A stretch of 64,000 nt of DNA from Candidatus Moraniibacteriota bacterium (GTDB lineage Bacteria > Patescibacteriota > Minisyncoccia > Moranbacterales > UBA1568). Under the pieces are notes generated by a model, which saw only the letters and a program-made list of their open reading frames with translations, made no database searches and was not told the DNA's origin. The DNA lies in NCBI GenBank assembly GCA_028711705.1, contig JAQTRS010000001.1, positions 98,761 through 162,760 on the forward strand, in the 5' to 3' direction. The stretch's first letter is position 1. The number at the start of each line of letters is the position of its first letter. This document shows positions 28,125 to 35,300 of the stretch, piece by piece. A program made the position numbers and the translations under genes.

Positions 28125-30044
28125 TTACTTTTTCTCTTCGTCGTCTTTCTTGTCCTCTACCTCAGCGTCTTTGACTTCACCTTCGGGCTTTGCTTCGCCT
28201 TCAGTGCTTCCTGCTTGGCTCGCCGTAGATTCATCGGAGGAGGCAGCGGCTTTGTAAAGCTTCTCGCCGATGCCTTGGGCGGCTGCGGAGAGGGCTTCGG
28301 TCGCTTTCTTGATCTCATCGAGGTTGTCTCCGTTCTTGACCTTATTGAGTTCGTCGAGCTTTTCTTGGACCGGCTTCTTCTCGTCCTCGGTCAGCTTGTC
28401 GCCAGCATCCTTCATCGCTTTTTCCGTGGTGTAGGTGAGCGAGTCGGCCATATTGCGAGCCTCGACAAGTTCTTTCTTCTTCTTGTCTTCGTCCGCGTGC
28501 GCCTCAGCATCTTTCTTCATTTTCTCGATTTCTTCTTTGGAAAGTCCGGTCGATGCTTCGATGCGGATAGACTGGCTCTTATTCGTCGCCTTGTCCTTGG
28601 CAGTTACGGAGAGAATTCCGTTGGCGTCGATGTCAAATGTCACTTCGATCTGCGGAATACCGCGTGGAGATGGTGGAATACCGTCGAGGATAAATCTTCC
28701 GAGAGATTTGTTGTCGGCAGCCATTTCACGCTCACCTTGCAAGACGTGGATCTCTACGCTCGGCTGATTGTCAGCGGCGGTCGAAAATACCTGCGACTTC
28801 GCAGCAGGAACCGTCGTGTTGCGCTCGATCAAAGCAGTGCGCACGCCACCCATGGTCTCAATTCCAAAAGTAAGCGGGGTTACATCGAGGAGCAATACAT
28901 CCTTCACCGATCCTTCGAGCACACCTCCCTGGATAGCGGCGCCCATAGCTACCACTTCATCAGGATTCACGGAGATATTCGGTTTCTTGCCGAAGAATTT
29001 CTCAACAGTCTGGAGTACGAGCGGCATGCGGGTCATTCCTCCCACCATCACGACTTCATTGATATCGCTAGTCGAAAGCTTTGCATCGGCAAGCGCTTTC
29101 TTCACCGGCTCAAGCGTCTTTGCCACGAGGTCGCCCACCAATTCTTCAAGCTTCGCACGGGTCATCTTGAGCACCAAGTGCTTCGGCCCGGATGCATCCG
29201 AAGTGATGAATGGCTGATTGATTTCTGTATCATTGGCAGTTGAAAGCTCGATCTTCGCCTTCTCAGCCGCTTCTTTGATGCGCTGCAATGCGAGCGGATC
29301 TTTGGAAAGGTCGATTCCTTCCTGCTTGCGGAATTCATCGATGATCCAGTGGATGATGGTCTGGTCGAAGTCGTCTCCACCCAGGTGCGTGTCACCGTTG
29401 GTCGAACGCACTTCCACCGTGTCTTCGGATACTTCGAGGATAGAGATGTCGAATGTTCCTCCACCCAAGTCATACACAGCGATCTTCTCGTCTTTCTTCT
29501 TGTTGAATCCGTATGCGAGCGCTGCGGCTGTCGGTTCGTTGATGATTCGACGGACATTGAGTCCCGCGATTTCTCCGGCTTCCTTGGTCGCCTTGCGCTG
29601 CGAGTCATCGAAGTATGCCGGAACGGTAATCACCGCTTCCGTGATCTTTTCTCCCAAACGTTCTTCGGCATCGGCCTTGAGCTTGCCCAAGATCATAGCG
29701 GAAATTTCCTGCGGAGTGTACTCCTTACCACCCATCAGAACTTTCGTTCCCTCGCCAGCCTGCACGATCTTGTACGGCAAGGTCTTCAAATCGCGTTGCA
29801 CCTCCGCGTCGTTGAAGTGCCTTCCGATCAATCGCTTGATAGAGAAAAGCGTGTTTTCCGGATTAGTCACGCCCTGGCGCTTCGCCAAAAGACCCACCAA
29901 TCGCTCACCTGTCTTGGACACTGCTACCATGGAAGGTGTTGTGCGGTTCCCCTCCTTATTCTCGATAATCGTAGGCGTCCCACCCTCGACGATAGACATC
30001 GCGGAGTTGGTCGTTCCCAAGTCGATTCCCAAAATCTTTCCCAT
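28125..30044 (-). CDS. dnaK: Molecular chaperone DnaK (Hsp70)
   Basis: 639 aa, collinear with Hsp70 throughout ([21 protein letters not shown] motifs) and ending in an acidic EEKK tail. Confidence 0.97.
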
Positions 30045-30377: not shown

Positions 30378-31415
30378 ATGCGTAGTTTTTTAACAACCAC
30401 CTCGTTCTTGGAACAGCTTGCCGTCCAATATTGCGGATCTCGTGAACGCCTTTCGATTAAGAAATATCCGGTGAACGGATACCCATATATCTTAAGCGGA
30501 CACTCCATACATCCCGCTAAACGAGGACTCTATGATTCTCAAGCGCTGCAGAAATTCATCACGAAACTCTTCAACAAAATTATCGACGCAGAGGAAAAAG
30601 ACAGCGGTAAGGTCAAAATCTTACGCGAAGCTTCACTGATCGATGACGGGCTTATCGCCAACAAATCAGCATTGCAAGACGTCTTCCAAAACGAAGATGC
30701 ATTCGTTGTCGAAGTCCCTCCCCTGCATGCGCAATTCAAGTGCAAACGCTTCGGAAGCGACTACGGTATAAGCGTACTCAGTACGAACGGCAGGAATGAG
30801 AAGCATCAAAAAATATCCTCCCTGCTCGATGATTGGCTACTGGAAGAAGATCGCCCCACCGGCCTAAGAACGCTCGAACATCGATACGTGATAACGACAC
30901 AAAGAACGTTTAGCGATTCAAGAAGCTCTGAAAAGTTCAATCTTTATGATGTATTAGAGGGTTTGAAAAAATATATCCCCTGGATCTGCTGGTTCGGTGG
31001 GTCTACTGATGTGGAATCCTTTGCCGCGAATCTTGTCGACCAATGGCGAAGCGAGTATCACGATACTACCTCTCTTGGAGAATACAAGGAGATCGATATT
31101 CGTGGCAGACTGCTCTACGGTACGGAAGAGCAAAGAAAGATGTGGGCATGGCGCTGCGGCAGCCTTGATACGGAACACCCTTTCGATGAAACTTCCGGAG
31201 TGGTGTCGTTTCGAAAAGGCCATTCCTCTCAAAATGATAACCCTCATATAGAGCTTATCATTTCCGCACCGGGGTTTTCCGAAGACAGCTGGGCTTTCGA
31301 AGGCGATGATGGCGCTCGCTGCTATCAGCATCAGTTCAAAATGGAAGCGGCAGCCATTCAGATCATCACAGGCCTCGGATTGTACGGGGATAAGGACATC
31401 GTGCGTTATATGTAA
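30378..31415 (+). CDS. Hypothetical protein (first gene of the insert between dnaK and grpE)
   Basis: 345-aa soluble ORF with no recognisable motifs, followed by a terminator. Confidence 0.55.
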   Translation: MRSFLTTTSFLEQLAVQYCGSRERLSIKKYPVNGYPYILSGHSIHPAKRGLYDSQALQKFITKLFNKIIDAEEKDSGKVKILREASLIDDGLIANKSALQDVFQNEDAFVVEVPPLHAQFKCKRFGSDYGISVLSTNGRNEKHQKISSLLDDWLLEEDRPTGLRTLEHRYVITTQRTFSDSRSSEKFNLYDVLEGLKKYIPWICWFGGSTDVESFAANLVDQWRSEYHDTTSLGEYKEIDIRGRLLYGTEEQRKMWAWRCGSLDTEHPFDETSGVVSFRKGHSSQNDNPHIELIISAPGFSEDSWAFEGDDGARCYQHQFKMEAAAIQIITGLGLYGDKDIVRYM

Positions 31416-31645: not shown

Positions 31646-32161
31646 TCAGGCTGCCGCCATACGATCTTTTGAACCTTTCGAGCAGCACTTCATGACATAA
31701 TCAGCCACGTGGCCGATCAGGCGTGATTGATCACCTTTAAAACTCATCGAGTCCAGATACGCTATGGCAAATTCACGCCATGGCGCTTCAACGGACATCG
31801 AGGGCGTATCACCACGCGATGAAGTGGCATATACCAACTGTGTTAAAAAACCATCCAGTTGATTCAACCCCAAAACATTGGTAAGAATCGTCCTGACTCT
31901 TAGGTTGTTCCAGTTTTCCGTCGCATTCATCAACGCAGTCAATCGGAGCACTTGCTTTTGACAGGCATCCTCCCCAGTTGGCTGAATCGGGAATTTACTT
32001 TTGATTTGAGCGAACGCCATTCTTGAATGCATACCAGATGCAACCCACAAATGTTCTAAAATGGTCGCTTCCGGCAGGCCAAGCCGATATAATTCTTCCA
32101 CAATGGGAAGTTCATCCGAATTCAGGCATCTTGATCCTGCAACAGGCATATTGGTATTCAT
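31646..32161 (-). CDS. Hypothetical protein (divergent from the RT gene)
   Basis: 171-aa ORF with no recognisable family; it shares a 240-nt divergent promoter region with the RT gene. Confidence 0.5.
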   Translation of the reverse strand: MNTNMPVAGSRCLNSDELPIVEELYRLGLPEATILEHLWVASGMHSRMAFAQIKSKFPIQPTGEDACQKQVLRLTALMNATENWNNLRVRTILTNVLGLNQLDGFLTQLVYATSSRGDTPSMSVEAPWREFAIAYLDSMSFKGDQSRLIGHVADYVMKCCSKGSKDRMAAA

Positions 32162-32330
32162 GACAGACTCCTAGGGCATCACCCTATCTCATTGATATAT
32201 AGCCCTCCCTCGACATGAAGGGGACGTTTTTTAAACAACTACCTCATATTCCCAAAATAGCTTCCGTTTCTGAGAATAAGCCATCCTAACACATAGGACG
32301 CCTCTAGTCAAGGACTTTTGTCACTGATTA

Positions 32331-32359
32331 TTGACAAGAGAACCCGTTTACACTATAAA
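32331..32359 (+). promoter_or_regulatory. Consensus sigma70-type promoter for the RT gene (TTGACA-N17-TATAAA)
   Basis: TTGACA at 32331-32336, a 17-nt spacer, then TATAAA at 32354-32359. The RBS GGGAGG lies 5 nt before the ATG at 32401, and an in-frame stop sits 7 codons upstream of the ATG. Confidence 0.6.
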
Positions 32360-32400
32360 GAACTCAGTTCCTTTTACTATAAACTCGTCCGGGAGGTTCT

Positions 32401-33111
32401 ATGAAAATAAAAAATACACCTCCCGGATTCGCTTCAAAGCTTCTCGGGAATGGGCGGCGTGTCTTTATAATAAAGCCCCGCAGCCTGGATCTATACACCG
32501 TCCAACAAGATGTCAAACAAGAATTGGGACGTATAACCGCGTTCACTAATCAATTTGATTGCGTGAAACGGCACCTGATTCGCAAGAGCAGATTCTTCTG
32601 GAAGGTGGACTTGCGGAAAGCATTCGATCATGTGACATTCGCATCAGTCACCACCATTCCCAACCTTCCTGATGATATAAGGCATTCCCCACAACTCTTT
32701 TTCCATACGAACGGAGGACTCATCCAAGGTGCCCCATCATCCCCGAAAATCTTCCAGCTGTTTTGCCAACAACGCTTGGATCCAGAGATTCAGAAGTTCT
32801 GCGGGAAAAATACTATCGTCTACACGCGTTTCGCTGACGATCTTCTGTTCTCATCGAGGAAGGCTATCGGGAAAGGCGCACGCGAAAGAATACGCATCAT
32901 CATCCGCTACGCTGGATTTCACGTCAATGAGAAAAAGGTATCGCTCGTGGACAACAGCTATACACCCATCGAATATCTCGGCATGGAAATTTTTCAAGGA
33001 AGAGTCTCTCCCGAAAAAGAATTCCTCAAAAGATTCTCACTCATTCCGGATGGGCCGGAAAAAACCGGGATGCGCGGCTGGATAAAATCGGTGCTTGCGC
33101 TCAATACATGA
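32401..33111 (+). CDS. Mini reverse transcriptase (236 aa; fingers/palm only, no thumb/X, maturase or endonuclease domains)
   Basis: RT motifs in order: FFWKVDLRKAFDHV (motif 2/A, catalytic D), GLIQGAPSSPKIFQLF (motif 4/B, QGxxxSP), YTRFADDLLF (motif 5/C, FADD), GFHVNEKKVS (motif 6/D) and YLGMEI (motif 7/E). The protein ends about 35 aa after motif 7. Confidence 0.8.
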   Translation: MKIKNTPPGFASKLLGNGRRVFIIKPRSLDLYTVQQDVKQELGRITAFTNQFDCVKRHLIRKSRFFWKVDLRKAFDHVTFASVTTIPNLPDDIRHSPQLFFHTNGGLIQGAPSSPKIFQLFCQQRLDPEIQKFCGKNTIVYTRFADDLLFSSRKAIGKGARERIRIIIRYAGFHVNEKKVSLVDNSYTPIEYLGMEIFQGRVSPEKEFLKRFSLIPDGPEKTGMRGWIKSVLALNT

Positions 33112-33134
33112 AACGTGTACATTGAAGACAAGCG

Positions 33135-33160
33135 TATCTGCAAGGACGCAGACTTTTTGC
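33135..33160 (+). terminator. Weak terminator hairpin after the RT gene
   Basis: tctgc-aaggac-gcaga followed by cttttt; only a 5-bp stem. Confidence 0.35.
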
Positions 33161-33170
33161 TTCGTGGCCG

Positions 33171-33430
33171 AGAGCACATCACCGCCTGAGACAAGGCGAT
33201 TCTTACGCTAGAATCCATCCTTCTCAGGTATTTTTCTAGGGTCAACGCGCCCTACGACACGCCTCATCGGCTTTGCACTCCAAAACAGCACGCTTTTCTG
33301 GCTATACAATAGAATCCTATTGCCAAGAAGTAGAATCCTCCTTAATTCCAATGACATCCCTGCTCCGGCCACGGTCAATCTGGAACAAACTAAAACCCTC
33401 TCAAGCAAAGCTTCAGAGCGGTTTTTTATT
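33171..33430 (+). ncRNA. Candidate structured non-coding RNA downstream of the RT (possible RT template or partner ncRNA)
   Basis: About 250 nt without an ORF between two terminators. It has nested hairpins (cctgaga[...gattct-tacgct-agaatc...]tctcagg; taggg-tcaacgcg-cccta; caatag-aatc-ctattg), three TAGAATCC repeats, and ends in a good terminator (ccctctcaagc-aaa-gcttcagag + CGGTTTTTT) at about 33398-33428. Confidence 0.25.
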
Positions 33431-33527
33431 ATCTTTGCAACGTTCCCTCTTGAGAAAACCTGCGTCTATGCTAAACTGTAGCTGCACATTAACAATCCCA
33501 TAAACCAAAACCAAAAGGAGCGATGCT

Positions 33528-33872
33528 ATGTCCGTACTCATAGTACCGAAATCGATAATCAGAATCGTTATCGACCCCAATTCCAAAAAAATAGGTTCTA
33601 AACGAATCCAAAGAACAAATTCCGACCAAGCGCTGGATATCCAATATCCTGTCGTGGAAAAAGTCACAAAACAGACCTTGCTTATACAAGAGTTCGACAG
33701 CGATAATGGCAAAGCGCTCATACGATGCCGTCCCAACTCTAAAAAAACGGGTGAATATACCTATCTCTACTACGACAGAAACCACGAAAAAATTGAACAG
33801 ACTATCACCTCTTTGGCATTATTCGATGAAGGTGATGAGGAGATCAAGGTCAATGTCTTCCTTACCTGTTAG
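33528..33872 (+). CDS. Hypothetical protein (last gene of the insert)
   Basis: 114-aa ORF with a strong RBS (AAGGAG, 8 nt before the ATG), followed by a bidirectional terminator. Confidence 0.55.
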   Translation: MSVLIVPKSIIRIVIDPNSKKIGSKRIQRTNSDQALDIQYPVVEKVTKQTLLIQEFDSDNGKALIRCRPNSKKTGEYTYLYYDRNHEKIEQTITSLALFDEGDEEIKVNVFLTC

Positions 33873-33951: not shown

Positions 33952-34521
33952 TTACTTCACGGACACCTTGGCCGGGCGGATGACCTTGTCCCCGATCCTG
34001 TATCCCTTCTGAAGGACTTTCGCGACCGTCTGCATCTGGGGTGCCTCCTCCTGAGACTCCGCCTCTTCCGTTGACTGTTCGTCGCTGATCGCCTCGTGGA
34101 TGCTCGGGTCGAAGGCGTCGCCTTCTTTCACCTCGATCACCTGCATACCGTTGGCGGTCAACACATCTTCCAATTGCTTCTCGATATACTGGATACCCAC
34201 CACCCATGGATCGGATTTGGAACCTTCCGGAACATGATTGGTCGCCATGCGGAAATTGTCGAGCACCGGAATAAGATCCAGCACCAGTCGCTCGATCAGA
34301 TAGCCGGAGAGCTCCTTCTGCGACTCCTGCTGGCGCTTCTTGTAATTCGCAAAATCCGCCTGCAATCGCTGCAAGTCATGCAGGTATTCCTGCGCAAGCT
34401 CTTCCGGCGTTTTTTCCTTCATTTCCTCGGGGGTAACTTCTTGAGCAGCCTCTTTCGGCGAAGTTTCCGTTTCTTTCATATCTTTCTCTGCCTTTGTTTC
34501 ATCATGCTTCTTTGATTTCAT
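33952..34521 (-). CDS. grpE: Nucleotide exchange factor GrpE
   Basis: 189 aa; coiled-coil N-terminal half and C-terminal GrpE beta-domain (VLDNFRMATNHVPEG...QKGYRIGDKVIRPAKVSV), immediately downstream of hrcA. Confidence 0.9.
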   Translation of the reverse strand: MKSKKHDETKAEKDMKETETSPKEAAQEVTPEEMKEKTPEELAQEYLHDLQRLQADFANYKKRQQESQKELSGYLIERLVLDLIPVLDNFRMATNHVPEGSKSDPWVVGIQYIEKQLEDVLTANGMQVIEVKEGDAFDPSIHEAISDEQSTEEAESQEEAPQMQTVAKVLQKGYRIGDKVIRPAKVSVK

Positions 34522-34535
34522 ATGGTTGTAGGATC

Positions 34536-35300
34536 TTACAAAATTACTTTGACCAGGATAATCGCGACTGGAAGCGATGCGCCCGACGACGAACTCAGAA
34601 GCTTCTTCACGTATTCCAAGAGCGATTTATTCTTGGCATACTTCATGCGCTTGGGACCGATAATCGCCAAAACGCCGCGTTCCCCGTCCTTATTGCGATA
34701 CGGCGCCACCATCATCGAGCAGTTCTTGGATATTTCGGGAATAGGATTCTCTTCGCCGATGAATATCCGCATCGAATCGTCCTTCATGCCCGCAAGCAAT
34801 ACATCGAATTTCTCATCCAGCGAATCCAGCGTCTCCACCAAGCGGCACAATTCATCAAGCTCCCGGAACTCCGGCGCCTCGATCAGTTCCTTGATACCGA
34901 AATCATAGAACTCATCTTTAGAGGCATCACCCATCACCGCAAGGTTACCCGACAGCGCCGAAAGGAGTTTGGCTGTCGTGCGCGAAAGCCGCGTCTGCTT
35001 CGCTTTCATCATCAAAAGTTCGGCCTGCAATCGCCGCTGCTCTTCCTTGGAAAGTTCCTGATCGCCCATGACTTCCTCGATATAGAAGCGATAACCCTTG
35101 TCCGTCGGGATGCGCCCGGCACTGATATGCGGCTGATACAGGAAACCTTCCTCTTCCAGGTGCGCCATATCGTTGCGCAAAGTCGCCGAACTCACGTCGA
35201 ATTTATGGCGCTCTAAAAGGACCTGCGAACCCACGGGCAGAGCCGTTTCCGTATAGATCTCGACGATAGCCGCGAGCACTTTTTGTTGGCGTGTATTCAT
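34536..35300 (-). CDS. hrcA: Heat-inducible transcription repressor HrcA
   Basis: The N-terminal winged helix (QQKVLAAIVEIYTETALPVGSQVL...SSATLRNDMAHLEEEGFLYQPHISAGRIPT) is collinear with HrcA. A CIRCE lies immediately upstream, and a TATACT -10 box sits 8 nt before the ATG, so the transcript is near-leaderless. Confidence 0.9.
   Translation of the reverse strand: MNTRQQKVLAAIVEIYTETALPVGSQVLLERHKFDVSSATLRNDMAHLEEEGFLYQPHISAGRIPTDKGYRFYIEEVMGDQELSKEEQRRLQAELLMMKAKQTRLSRTTAKLLSALSGNLAVMGDASKDEFYDFGIKELIEAPEFRELDELCRLVETLDSLDEKFDVLLAGMKDDSMRIFIGEENPIPEISKNCSMMVAPYRNKDGERGVLAIIGPKRMKYAKNKSLLEYVKKLLSSSSGASLPVAIILVKVIL

Follow-up and report, generated by a model that had tools for sequence, protein, structure and literature searches.

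Within the window, the 64-kb stretch of DNA analysed here, a small reverse transcriptase (RT) gene is followed on the same strand by a genuine structured non-coding RNA (ncRNA) gene of about 300 nt that has its own promoter and terminator. The extent of the ncRNA was inferred from the position of the promoter, the conserved fold and the terminator. The locus contains the following features:

32330 to 33430, plus strand: two-gene cassette of RT and ncRNA, 1.1 kb
32331 to 32359, plus strand: RT gene promoter, TTGACA (32331-32336), 17-nt spacer, TATAAA (32354-32359)
32360 to 32370, plus strand: palindrome GAACTCAGTTC 3' of the RT promoter, then the RBS GGGAGG
32401 to 33111, plus strand: compact retron-like RT, 236 aa, catalytic FADD intact
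33095 to 33123, plus strand: ncRNA promoter, -35 TTGCGC (33095-33100), 17-nt spacer, -10 TACATT (33118-33123)
33130 to 33427, plus strand: predicted ncRNA as a whole (about 298 nt), with its putative start at the foot of helix P1 and its end at the last U of the terminator
33396 to 33427, plus strand: intrinsic terminator, hairpin CCCUCUCAAGC-AAA-GCUUCAGAGCGG and U6

Across six loci the ATTGACA and CTATAAA elements of the RT promoter were invariant, and homology between the loci began sharply at the -35 box. The encoded protein matched the Pfam domain RVT_1 (2.1e-15), and its best PADLOC matches were the retron RT models II-A, I-B and III-A (3e-22 to 9e-20). A PDB profile search returned the Ec86 RT first (6.6e-19), with DRT2 at 1.6e-11 and group II at 7e-10. 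When the fold predicted by AF2 (pLDDT 95.6) was used as a Foldseek query, all of the top 14 matches were retron RTs. The Asp of motif A and the xxDD are invariant in the family and motif 4 reads QGAPSSP, while two invariant residues, H58 and G194, occupy in alignments the places of the H in NAXXH and the G in VTG, although these motifs here read CVxxH and YLG. By sequence and by predicted fold, this RT is thus nearest to the retron RTs. At about 236 aa (family range 230-250 aa) it was the smallest RT of the retron lineage seen in our searches. A phage origin of the cassette was rejected, IMG/VR being without any member of the RT family. A group II intron was rejected as well: there was no Rfam intron match, TIGR04416 scored 27.8 bits against 300, and the 236-aa RT is without X, D and En domains. 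One of the UG/Abi groups, UG38, is borne by CPR (PMC9226505). Judged from its sequence the window RT is unlikely to belong to this group, because UG/DRT models were missing from its best 25 PADLOC matches, all of which were retron or CRISPR-associated RTs. One outgroup protein gave a UG21 match in PADLOC (6.7e-13).

The RNA can be divided into the following parts:

33130 to 33162, plus strand: P1, outer stem AAGCG/UGC-UU (33130-33134 with 33158-33162)
33137 to 33141 with 33148 to 33152, plus strand: inner hairpin of P1, UCUGC/GCAGA, loop AAGGAC (AUGGAU in most relatives)
33163 to 33176, plus strand: 5' arm of P2 (a1-like), CGUGGCCGAGAGCA, pairing with 33361-33373
33185 to 33228, plus strand: P3, long variable hairpin CCUGAGA...UCUCAGG (arms 33185-33191 and 33222-33228) around GAUUCU-UACGCU-AGAAUC, with copy 1 of the 8-mer TAGAATCC
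33229 to 33258, plus strand: pyrimidine-rich linker UAUUUUUC, hairpin P4 (UCUAGGGU...GCCCUA-GA; TAGGG/CCCTA at 33237-33241/33250-33254), then CGAC
33259 to 33332, plus strand: V, hypervariable centre, with hairpin CAAUAG-AAUC-CUAUUG and copy 2 of the 8-mer
33333 to 33361, plus strand: hairpin P5 (GAAUCC...AAUUC; consensus GAAUCA-UCC-UGAUUC) with copy 3 of the 8-mer, then UCCAAUGAC-AUCCCU
33361 to 33385, plus strand: 3' arm of P2 (a2-like) UGCUCCGGCCACG, invariant GGUCA, and tail AUCUGGAA, in which UGGA is the 3' strand of P6

This fold of 42 base pairs in seven helices was common to nine relatives with RT identities of 46-72%. In the alignment 90.1% of cells were paired, vs 34-39% with slid partners, and 18 pairs showed compensatory (double) changes, vs 0-5 in the slid controls. 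None of 500 shuffles reached the observed values for pairing and covariation; RNAalifold was also run. Compensatory changes were counted in five of the seven helices. In P1 (helices 1 and 2; 96% and 89% of cells paired) they affected 7 of 10 pairs, and in P2 (helix 3; 94% paired) 5 of 11. The CGUGG of the 5' arm of P2 is invariant within the close clade, the invariant residues of this helix cluster at its outer end (CGUGG/CCACGGUCA), and distant loci carry stems of 13-15 bp at the homologous place. P3 (helices 4 and 5) likewise showed compensatory changes and differs among loci in length and inner sequence. P4 (helix 6) is the most conserved hairpin and forms an invariant block in the alignments (8 pairs, 97% paired, 2 compensatory). 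V measures 24-105 nt in relatives, and among the aligned relatives it showed no conserved sequence or structure and nothing like a conserved long msd hairpin. The string UCCAAUGAC-AUCCCU 3' of P5 is conserved. A putative pseudoknot, P6, would pair UCCA (3' of P5) with the UGGA of the tail; both were invariant in 16/16 loci, and the flanking pair took AU, UA, CG or GC form in 10/16. Its existence and conservation are likely from these sequences, although few positions covary and the UUC of P6 overlaps the 3' arm of P5.

More distant clades (RT identity 29-44%), which were compared partly by eye, keep the same plan, with P1 and its UGGA-type loop, a long-range stem of 13-15 bp, the GGUCA-UGGA tail and a terminator. 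Across 283 kb of sequence, unrelated RT loci included, a covariance model of the 3' motif (R1) matched 11 loci at 44-75 bits, in each case downstream of an RT of this family and nowhere else. R1 missed clades B1 and B2 because their 3' domains are too diverged, and a separate alignment was therefore used for them. No Rfam family matched the 6-kb surroundings or the element alone. The RNA family is supported by covariation and is absent from Rfam.

Directly 5' of P1, in sequences read by eye, TTGCnn-N16/17-TAnnnT occurred in 18/18 family loci; the T, A and T of the -10 box are invariant columns of our alignment A4, and the -35 box overlaps the last RT codons in the window. By its sequence, this promoter is of the sigma70 type. 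At the other end a terminator hairpin with U-run lies at the same place in 9/9 aligned loci, with differing stem sequences, and also in distant loci; every readable locus is closed by one. An A-rich run stands 5' of the terminator, which could therefore act bidirectionally. The plus strand of 33112-33440 folds at -98 kcal/mol (z = -4.5 vs shuffles). In the strand comparison, plus vs minus, there were 335 vs 322 canonical cells and 33 vs 20 G-U pairs. Transcription of the minus strand, which would give the canonical retron order, was rejected because of the G-U counts, the promoter and the terminator.

An earlier note on this DNA had described an ORF-free, structured stretch starting at 33171 and ending in a terminator. 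The nested stems that it named are all present (CCTGAGA/TCTCAGG enclosing GATTCT/AGAATC, CAATAG/CTATTG and TAGGG/CCCTA), the terminator hairpin and T-run were found at 33396-33427, and the comparative alignment that it had asked for showed stems kept in relatives with compensatory changes. Its starting point cuts the element, falling inside the 5' arm of the long-range helix (33163-33176/33361-33373). The weak hairpin at 33137-33152, which it had left outside the unit, does not terminate the RT transcript but is the first conserved helix, P1, with a covarying stem. Its statement that there is no ORF holds for ATG ORFs but not for mechanical TTG ORFs, of which some of 53-76 aa overlap the region; coding is ruled out, the indels of the region not being multiples of three and its centre being hypervariable.

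The 8-mer TAGAATCC, to which the note had drawn attention, was found at 33209, 33310 and 33331 on the plus strand and six times in the window on both strands, vs 1.9 expected. Copy 3 forms the 5' arm of the conserved hairpin P5, whereas copy 1 is retained in the closest relatives only and copy 2 was found in this genome alone. As a feature the repeat thus holds for one copy and is mostly incidental. Partner swapping between P3 and P5 through their GAAUC/GAUUC arms was rejected as a cause of the repeats because the P3 arms change independently in loci L012 and L092.

The two unconserved copies would fit another explanation, that the region merely represents the RT gene's 3' UTR with its terminator, or else intergenic drift in AT-rich sequence where repeats arose by chance, and so would the U-run 3' of the first hairpin, which is present in this genome and absent in relatives. 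Against this stand the compensatory changes in five of seven helices, the conservation of the block down to 29% RT identity, the internal position of the promoter 5' of P1, and a separate terminator of the RT gene 5' of the ncRNA promoter box in three loci (L007, L008 and L013). Drift, which the earlier note had set as its own refutation, is contradicted by covariation, by co-occurrence with the RT and by the presence of promoter and terminator, and we consider this explanation extremely improbable.

In all loci the ncRNA lay on the downstream side of its RT, and it was found together with this RT family alone. The contexts of the cassette differ, including dnaK-grpE, tRNA-Pro/tRNA-Gly and a glycosyltransferase cluster. 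When the ORFs located up to 4.5 kb to either side in 22 loci were clustered all against all, no conserved protein partner emerged; what recurred was limited to dnaK/grpE/hrcA synteny and a sporadic RNA_pol_A_CTD-like ORF, which this window lacks. RT and ncRNA appear to co-evolve. Because the ncRNA is a real gene with its own promoter and terminator and always lies 3' of that RT, it is very probably the RNA partner of the adjoining small retron-like RT in Patescibacteria (CPR). The RT-associated structured RNA proposed in the earlier note is strongly supported by covariation, by strict co-occurrence with the RT family across contexts and by the dedicated promoter and terminator. Our main reading, to which we give a probability of about 0.62, is that the separately transcribed RNA serves as a dedicated subunit of a compact retron-related RT, being its scaffold and template, in a two-gene cassette. 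The position of the cassette inside hrcA-grpE-dnaK is stable across RTs that are 52-72% identical, which, in a more tentative reading, may mean that it has been kept for a host function and not as a mobile defence island.

In the conserved fold the 5' hairpin P1 is stacked beside the long-range helix P2, which closes a domain of P3, P4, V and P5, and the 3' tail probably pairs back (UCCA/UGGA) into a pseudoknot with P2. If the RNA is such a subunit, the RT might bind P4 and the P5-pseudoknot-GGUCA elements to form an RNP and copy an internal stretch of the RNA into DNA. Retron RTs start copying at a position next to the closing helix. The best template candidate here would be V with P5, between the conserved boundary P4...CGAC and the likewise conserved GAC-AUCCCU beside the closing helix, and the product might be a short, element-specific cDNA of approximately 50-130 nt. 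As primer, a 2'-OH would correspond to retrons and the 3' end of the RNA to DRT2, with protein as a third candidate; the biological role might be phage defence or some housekeeping task. Synthesis might also be primed where the closing helix ends on its outer side, at the invariant GGUCA junction. We tentatively suggest a new RT-ncRNA class, apparently restricted to Patescibacteria, in which a minimal retron-derived RT of 230-250 aa is combined with a downstream, independently transcribed, pseudoknotted RNA and in which priming geometry and DNA product are unlike those of retrons; this extended proposal is possible, and we hold it with clearly less confidence than the main reading.

A structured RNA could also bind or regulate an RT without being copied. 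The RNA would then never be reverse transcribed and would act as a regulatory or inhibitory partner, i.e. an RT-sequestering or antitoxin-like sRNA or a cis or trans regulator of RT expression. An independent promoter and terminator are what an ordinary sRNA gene has, and the best-conserved parts of the RNA resemble protein-binding hairpins more than an obvious template. UGGA is found both in the P1 loop and in the tail, so that two segments could compete for UCCA, as would suit a switch. Nevertheless the RT catalytic residues are strictly conserved, and internal hypervariability of the kind seen in V is typical of templates. To our knowledge, moreover, characterised bacterial RTs with a dedicated adjacent ncRNA (retrons, DRT2, DRT3, DRT9, DRT10 and DGR) use it as template in every case. 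We therefore regard a purely regulatory role as quite unlikely.

Each bacterial RT-ncRNA pair characterised so far has, as far as we know, revealed a new mode of making DNA, such as branched msDNA, a de novo gene, poly-dA or telomere-like repeats. With its 1.1 kb, clear promoters and well-defined RNA fold, the cassette lends itself to a direct test in E. coli. Should the RT prove active, retron-style genome editing would gain an attractive minimal enzyme, and a role of retron-like RTs would be revealed in ultra-small symbiotic bacteria, which carry few defence systems. The locus also contributes an RNA family that has covariation support and no Rfam entry.

The layout of an RT followed by its ncRNA is without a match among the described RT-RNA systems. 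DGRs are the commonest RT system in CPR, and their RNAs likewise join a template with a structured 3' spacer, so the ncRNA might be read as a DGR template repeat with spacer RNA. The 64-kb window contains no VR-like copy of any 40-nt piece, mismatches at A positions being ignored, and the neighbourhoods of 22 loci share no conserved Avd or target gene. DGR RTs carry another form of motif 4 than QGAPSSP, and the DGR RT ranked 35th in Foldseek (TMq 0.65), well under the retron RTs. A DGR thus has next to no probability.

DRT2 ncRNAs consist of a conserved stem, a loosely constrained variable segment and a conserved hairpin with pseudoknot (PMC12039810). The cassette resembles DRT2 in having two components, RT and ncRNA, without an effector gene, and in its rigid, conserved 5' and 3' scaffold with a pseudoknot around a loosely constrained centre. 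In contrast to DRT2, the RT is of a class other than UG2 (Drt2 model 23.6 bits vs cut-off 390; DRT2 structure at Foldseek rank 25, TMq 0.56), the ncRNA is downstream and not upstream, and the RNA ends in a terminator hairpin and not in a free priming 3' end. When two candidate units (the P2-enclosed loop and CGAC-to-GAC) from nine loci were searched for ORFs in circular and concatemer form, stops were met in nearly all frames, and unit lengths were often not multiples of three, so a Neo-like gene is not encoded. The DRT2-type ncRNA considered in the earlier note is accordingly unsupported, both by the Drt2 score and for want of a stop-free repeat ORF. In DRT3 (UG3 and UG8 RTs) the ncRNA also lies 3' of an RT, namely the second one, whereas here there is a single RT that lies outside the UG/Abi class (Drt3a 14.6 bits vs 200); no second RT was found among the neighbours of family loci and no conserved copy of the CACACA-type motif in the ncRNA. 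With DRT9, DRT10 and telomerase the RNA shares its structured nature, a pyrimidine-rich single-stranded linker beside a conserved stem, and a pseudoknot that follows the candidate template on its 3' side; it differs from them in having no SLATT partner and no evident repeat unit, and its RT is without long UG28 C-terminal regions. DRT9 structures reached a TMq of 0.58-0.66 in Foldseek, under the retron RTs. The DRT9 ncRNA has a universal poly-U tract (PMC12483538), and no such tract was found here, the linker reading UYUUUC with U5 in some loci only.

One could imagine from these likenesses that a template between the 5' stem and the 3' pseudoknot is copied repeatedly into tandem-repeat DNA, as in DRT2, DRT10 or telomerase. 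The architecture of P4, variable segment and hairpin with pseudoknot is conceptually similar (PMC12039810), the direct repeats CGAC and (U/C)GAC that flank V and P5 could support realignment, and an effector gene is missing as in DRT2. We consider repeated copying very unlikely, given an RT that is not UG2, UG28 or UG3, concatemer units full of stops, and a linker unlike that of DRT9.

Retrons, which combine an msr-msd ncRNA with a retron RT, are grouped into types I-XIII (Mestre et al. 2020, PMC7736814). The locus might be a true retron with permuted order, in which P2 would be the a1/a2 helix, a guanosine 2'-OH beside this helix would prime branched msDNA from the region that it encloses, and the complex of msDNA, RNA and RT would sense phages. 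HMM matches, the PDB profile search and the predicted fold all place the RT closest to retron RTs, and it keeps the region X H and the region Y G, the most conserved residues of NAXXH and VTG (PMC7736814). In the RNA, terminal inverted repeats enclose internal stem-loops, P2 pairing in the manner of a1/a2; the RT adjoins the ncRNA, and retrons too include stand-alone msr-msd-RT cassettes that have no effector (PMC7736814). In alignment A4, however, there is no conserved G after the 5' arm of P2 and no opposing G pair at its inner end, and locus L096 has none at all. None of the 13 type-specific RT models matched strongly, and the NCBIfam retron models stayed far under their cut-offs (62.6 and 51.9 bits vs 235 and 450). 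The canonical msr/msd that the earlier note had in mind finds no support in an RNA that is downstream, separately transcribed, without a conserved inner G and with its long variable hairpin at the 5' side; the canonical order would appear on the disfavoured minus strand alone. A permuted true retron is in our view unlikely. The cassette differs from retrons in an RT that is about 70-90 aa shorter with the N-terminal extension almost missing, in CVxxH and YLG instead of NAXXH and VTG, and in a ncRNA 3' of the RT under its own promoter instead of an upstream, co-transcribed msr-msd-ret. Finally, where retrons follow the order a1-msr-msd-a2, this RNA places the variable P3 5' and the short conserved P4 and P5 3', and adds a 5' hairpin P1 outside the closing stem as well as a 3' pseudoknot and tail.

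An earlier note on this DNA had described a structured non-coding stretch directly after a reverse transcriptase (RT) gene. This finding was real and better than it first appeared: the stretch marks a covariation-supported RNA family; a search of Rfam returned no family matching the RNA. The plus strand at 33112-33440 folded with -98 kcal/mol (z = -4.5; minus strand z = -3.2). The nested stems named in the note were present in sequence and fold, and a long-range helix that it had not listed, CGUGGCCG(A)GAGCA at 33163-33176 with UGCUC-CGGCCACG at 33361-33373, encloses every other stem in the fold. The repeated 8-mer TAGAATCC was found three times as described (33209, 33310 and 33331), with six copies on both strands of the 64-kb window against 1.9 expected. 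As a signature it held for the third copy, which lies within a conserved motif; the other two lie outside, and the repeat was therefore a lucky pointer.

Downstream of the RT, every locus of the RT family with enough sequence had some 300-390 nt without a gene. Nine loci with 46-72% RT identity formed our main alignment. Conserved blocks alternated with variable blocks in it, and RNAalifold predicted 36 pairs, 18 of them with compensatory changes. A structure of 42 pairs in seven helices was counted against controls in which partners were slid by 1-3 columns, and against 500 shuffles. Paired cells amounted to 90.1% (33.9-39.2% in slid controls) and 18 pairs across the nine loci were changed on both sides, against 0-5 when partners were slid and 9.8 ± 2.0 in the shuffles. 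In none of the 500 shuffles did the fraction of paired cells, the double-change counts or the covariation score reach the observed value.

Elements of the RNA (window coordinates, plus strand)
33130-33162, P1, outer stem and inner hairpin
33163-33176 with 33361-33373, P2, long-range helix
33185-33228, P3, long variable hairpin
33235-33257, P4, most conserved hairpin, UCUAGGGU...GCCCUA-GA
33333-33348, P5, consensus GAAUCA-UCC-UGAUUC
33396-33427, terminator hairpin and U-run, in all aligned loci, outside the counted structure

The interval between P4 and P5 is a hypervariable segment (V) of 24-105 nt without common structure. Invariant nucleotides of P2 gather at its outer end (CGUGG/CCACGGUCA), beside P1 and the tail, and this clustering hints at a functional junction there. 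The plus strand is supported by the counts of canonical cells (335 vs 322) and G-U pairs (33 vs 20), by three G-U pairs read from the arms of P2 in the distant locus L022, and by the U-run after the terminal hairpin.

Among relatives from distant clades (numbered loci L006, L008, L009, L014, L015, L019, L022, L119 and L121; RT identity 29-44%) the sequences differed and the plan was the same in a comparison made partly by eye: a hairpin with an (A/C)UGGA(U/C) loop, directly followed by the 5' strand of a long-range stem of 13-15 bp, whose 3' strand leads into GGUCA-N3-4-UGGA and then the terminator. A covariance model built on the 3' motif, from P5 to the tail, scored 44-75 bits in 11 family loci and found nothing credible elsewhere in 283 kb, including the whole window and about 15 unrelated-RT loci. 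UCCA directly 3' of P5 (33347-33350) and UGGA in the tail (33381-33384) were invariant in all of the 16 loci compared, which represent three clades. In 10 of these loci the pair next to them is A-U, U-A, C-G or G-C (L006 AUCCAC/GUGGAU vs L121 AUCCAU/AUGGAU), and in one distant clade (B1) this putative helix, P6, is lengthened to UCCAACUUGGC/GCCAAGCUUGGA. Because the 3' arm of P2 sits between the UCCA and UGGA strands, P2 and P6 would form a pseudoknot, which is likely rather than proven, since few positions vary and UUC is shared with the 3' arm of P5 in the window clade. The P1 loop (33142-33147) also reads UGGA in most relatives (including L009, L014, L015, L022 and L092-L095) and AGGA in the window. 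As this is the tetramer of the P6 strand in the tail, both segments could compete for the invariant UCCA, and such competition could permit a conformational switch.

A sigma70-type promoter (TTGCnn, 16-17 nt, TAnnnT; read by eye) was present 5' of P1 in 18/18 loci examined, and 6-8 nt separate its end from the first pair of P1.

33095-33100, plus strand, TTGCGC of the ncRNA promoter in the window
33118-33123, plus strand, TACATT of the same promoter

The T, A and T of its -10 are invariant alignment columns with variable neighbours, and the -35 usually overlaps the codons for LAL(N), which is conserved at the RT's C terminus; a generic scan missed this promoter because it matches 8/12 consensus positions. 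In L007, L008 and L013 the RT's own terminator hairpin precedes it. The promoter and these terminators indicate that the RNA is no 3' UTR but a gene in its own right, about 298 nt long (33130-33427). The RT gene itself has an invariant promoter, ATTGACA-N17-CTATAAA (32330-32359; TTGACA-N17-TATAAA 32331-32359), and since homology between loci starts exactly there, the conserved module is a 1.1-kb cassette of RT and ncRNA genes. The palindrome GAACTCAGTTC (32360-32370) at the predicted +1 of the RT promoter, kept as GAACyCAGTTC in relatives, may act as an operator, or as a 5' hairpin, in the control of RT expression. The terminator region (33387-33427; about 6025-6068 in L001) has an A-run before the hairpin and a T-run after it and could thus be bidirectional. 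The opposite-strand grpE of L001 and L091 ends within ~20-60 nt of the ncRNA terminator; the insertion thus parts grpE and dnaK of the heat-shock operon, and it may end the hrcA-grpE transcript.

In the window the cassette lies in a mixed-strand island between dnaK and grpE.

28125-30044, minus strand, dnaK
30378-31415, plus strand, ORF345, in the island
31646-32161, minus strand, ORF171, in the island
32401-33111, plus strand, RT of 236 aa, Pfam RVT_1 (2.1e-15), in the island
33528-33872, plus strand, ORF114, in the island after the non-coding stretch
33952-34521, minus strand, grpE
34536-35300, minus strand, hrcA

The RT alone could be assigned to a family; ORF345, ORF171 and ORF114 had no significant match in Pfam, PADLOC or NCBIfam (best E 0.07-0.1, below every curated cut-off). 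These three were without counterpart in related loci, and variable cargo around the constant cassette was also seen elsewhere (DDE transposase in L003/L004, other small ORFs in L093). A sub-threshold RAGATH-25 match inside ORF171 (31971-32027, minus strand; 20.8 bits vs gathering score 49, E = 0.12) is most likely chance. Seven loci of the window clade had the cassette between dnaK and grpE, and L096 had it within a glycosyltransferase cluster. In L009 and L022 (29-32% RT identity) it lies between tRNA-Pro(TGG) and tRNA-Gly(GCC), which makes a second conserved site of insertion besides dnaK-grpE.

221-291 and 2462-2533, flanking tRNA genes in L009
2053-2124 and 4045-4118, flanking tRNA genes in L022

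ORF clustering within ±4.5 kb at 22 loci revealed no protein accompanying the RT beyond clade-specific synteny. An RNA_pol_A_CTD-like ORF (PF03118) directly 5' of the RT on the same strand (L001 4174-4854, L012 75-707, L093 3478-3867; none in the window by tblastn) could be an optional accessory or regulator. No member of the RT family was found in IMG/VR.

An NCBI protein entry named Candidatus Moranbacteria matches the RT with 100% identity, which places the window in a MAG of that CPR/Patescibacteria group. The RT had 30 homologues of 232-284 aa (E <= 1e-5, 5.8-billion-protein set), whose named sources were all CPR lineages. The contig of the closest relative, CAZUWR010000001.1 (L005 / L001; RT 72% identical, hrcA-grpE-RT-dnaK in the same order), carries the label 'uncultured Bdellovibrionales bacterium', which probably stems from an error in binning or taxonomy; the remaining named relatives are Patescibacteria. 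The Asp of motif A, the xxDD box and QGAPxSP were invariant. Best PADLOC matches were retron RT_II-A, I-B and III-A (3e-22 to 9e-20), NCBIfam matches to retron St85 (3.5e-17), group II (1.3e-6) and Drt2 (2.5e-5) were all far below cut-off, and none of 13 retron type models was matched strongly. Against PDB sequences the top ten hits of the family profile were retron RTs, followed by DRT2 (1.6e-11) and group II maturase (7e-10). On Ec86 RT (6.6e-19; query 45-227 on residues 97-284) the invariant H58 fell on H of NAXXH and G194 on G of VTG, and the alignment ended at the C-terminal Trp, where the family's conserved W...LALN tail starts. For a confident AF2 model (pLDDT 95.6) the 14 best Foldseek PDB matches were all retron RTs (TMq 0.69-0.75), with GsI-IIC close behind (0.71-0.73) and DRT9, DGR and DRT2 ranking lower. 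When 1.84 billion representatives were searched exhaustively with a profile, only 58 clusters reached E <= 1e-30, ~35 of them full-length (230-270 aa), and retron-like RTs of ~300 aa formed the next tier. These profile, PDB, fold and cluster results indicate that the family is a small and discrete branch of the retron RT lineage with truncated proteins, and the RT is the smallest retron-like RT that we saw.

In a cassette with two promoters and one terminator, and with a covarying multi-helix fold and an exclusive link to a retron-like RT with intact catalytic motifs, the RNA is probably (roughly 0.6) a subunit, scaffold plus template, of the adjacent RT. The RT would bind P4 and the P5-pseudoknot-GGUCA region and copy an internal RNA segment into DNA; V and P5, between the conserved CGAC after P4 and GAC-AUCCCU beside P2, would be the likeliest template, and a short cDNA specific to the element would result. 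A non-templating regulatory RNA appears improbable.

We compared this arrangement with retrons, DRT2, DRT9, DRT3, DGRs and group II introns. Full-text literature searches gave no description of an RT from Patescibacteria/CPR that has an ncRNA 3' of it. DGRs and group II introns were discarded, with no VR found in the window and no intron RNA domains at the locus. DRT9 (PMC12483538) differs in its universal poly-U, and DRT3 (PMC9226505) shares only the downstream RNA position. The DRT2-type ncRNA proposed earlier was rejected on RT class and failed Neo-ORF tests; the likeness to DRT2 (PMC12039810) is conceptual only, a pseudoknot scaffold 3' of a loosely held centre with no effector, and iterative DRT2- or telomerase-like synthesis would be very improbable. 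The msr/msd-like reading stood in part: the a1/a2-type closure and the RT lineage agree with the retron definition (PMC7736814), whereas the position of the RNA and its separate transcription differ, the closing stem has no conserved G at its inner end, and the variable and conserved hairpins follow another order; a branched msDNA of retron type seems rather unlikely. By its arrangement the cassette belongs to none of the described systems compared, and its two parts are an RNA family that Rfam lacks and the smallest retron-like RT of these searches.
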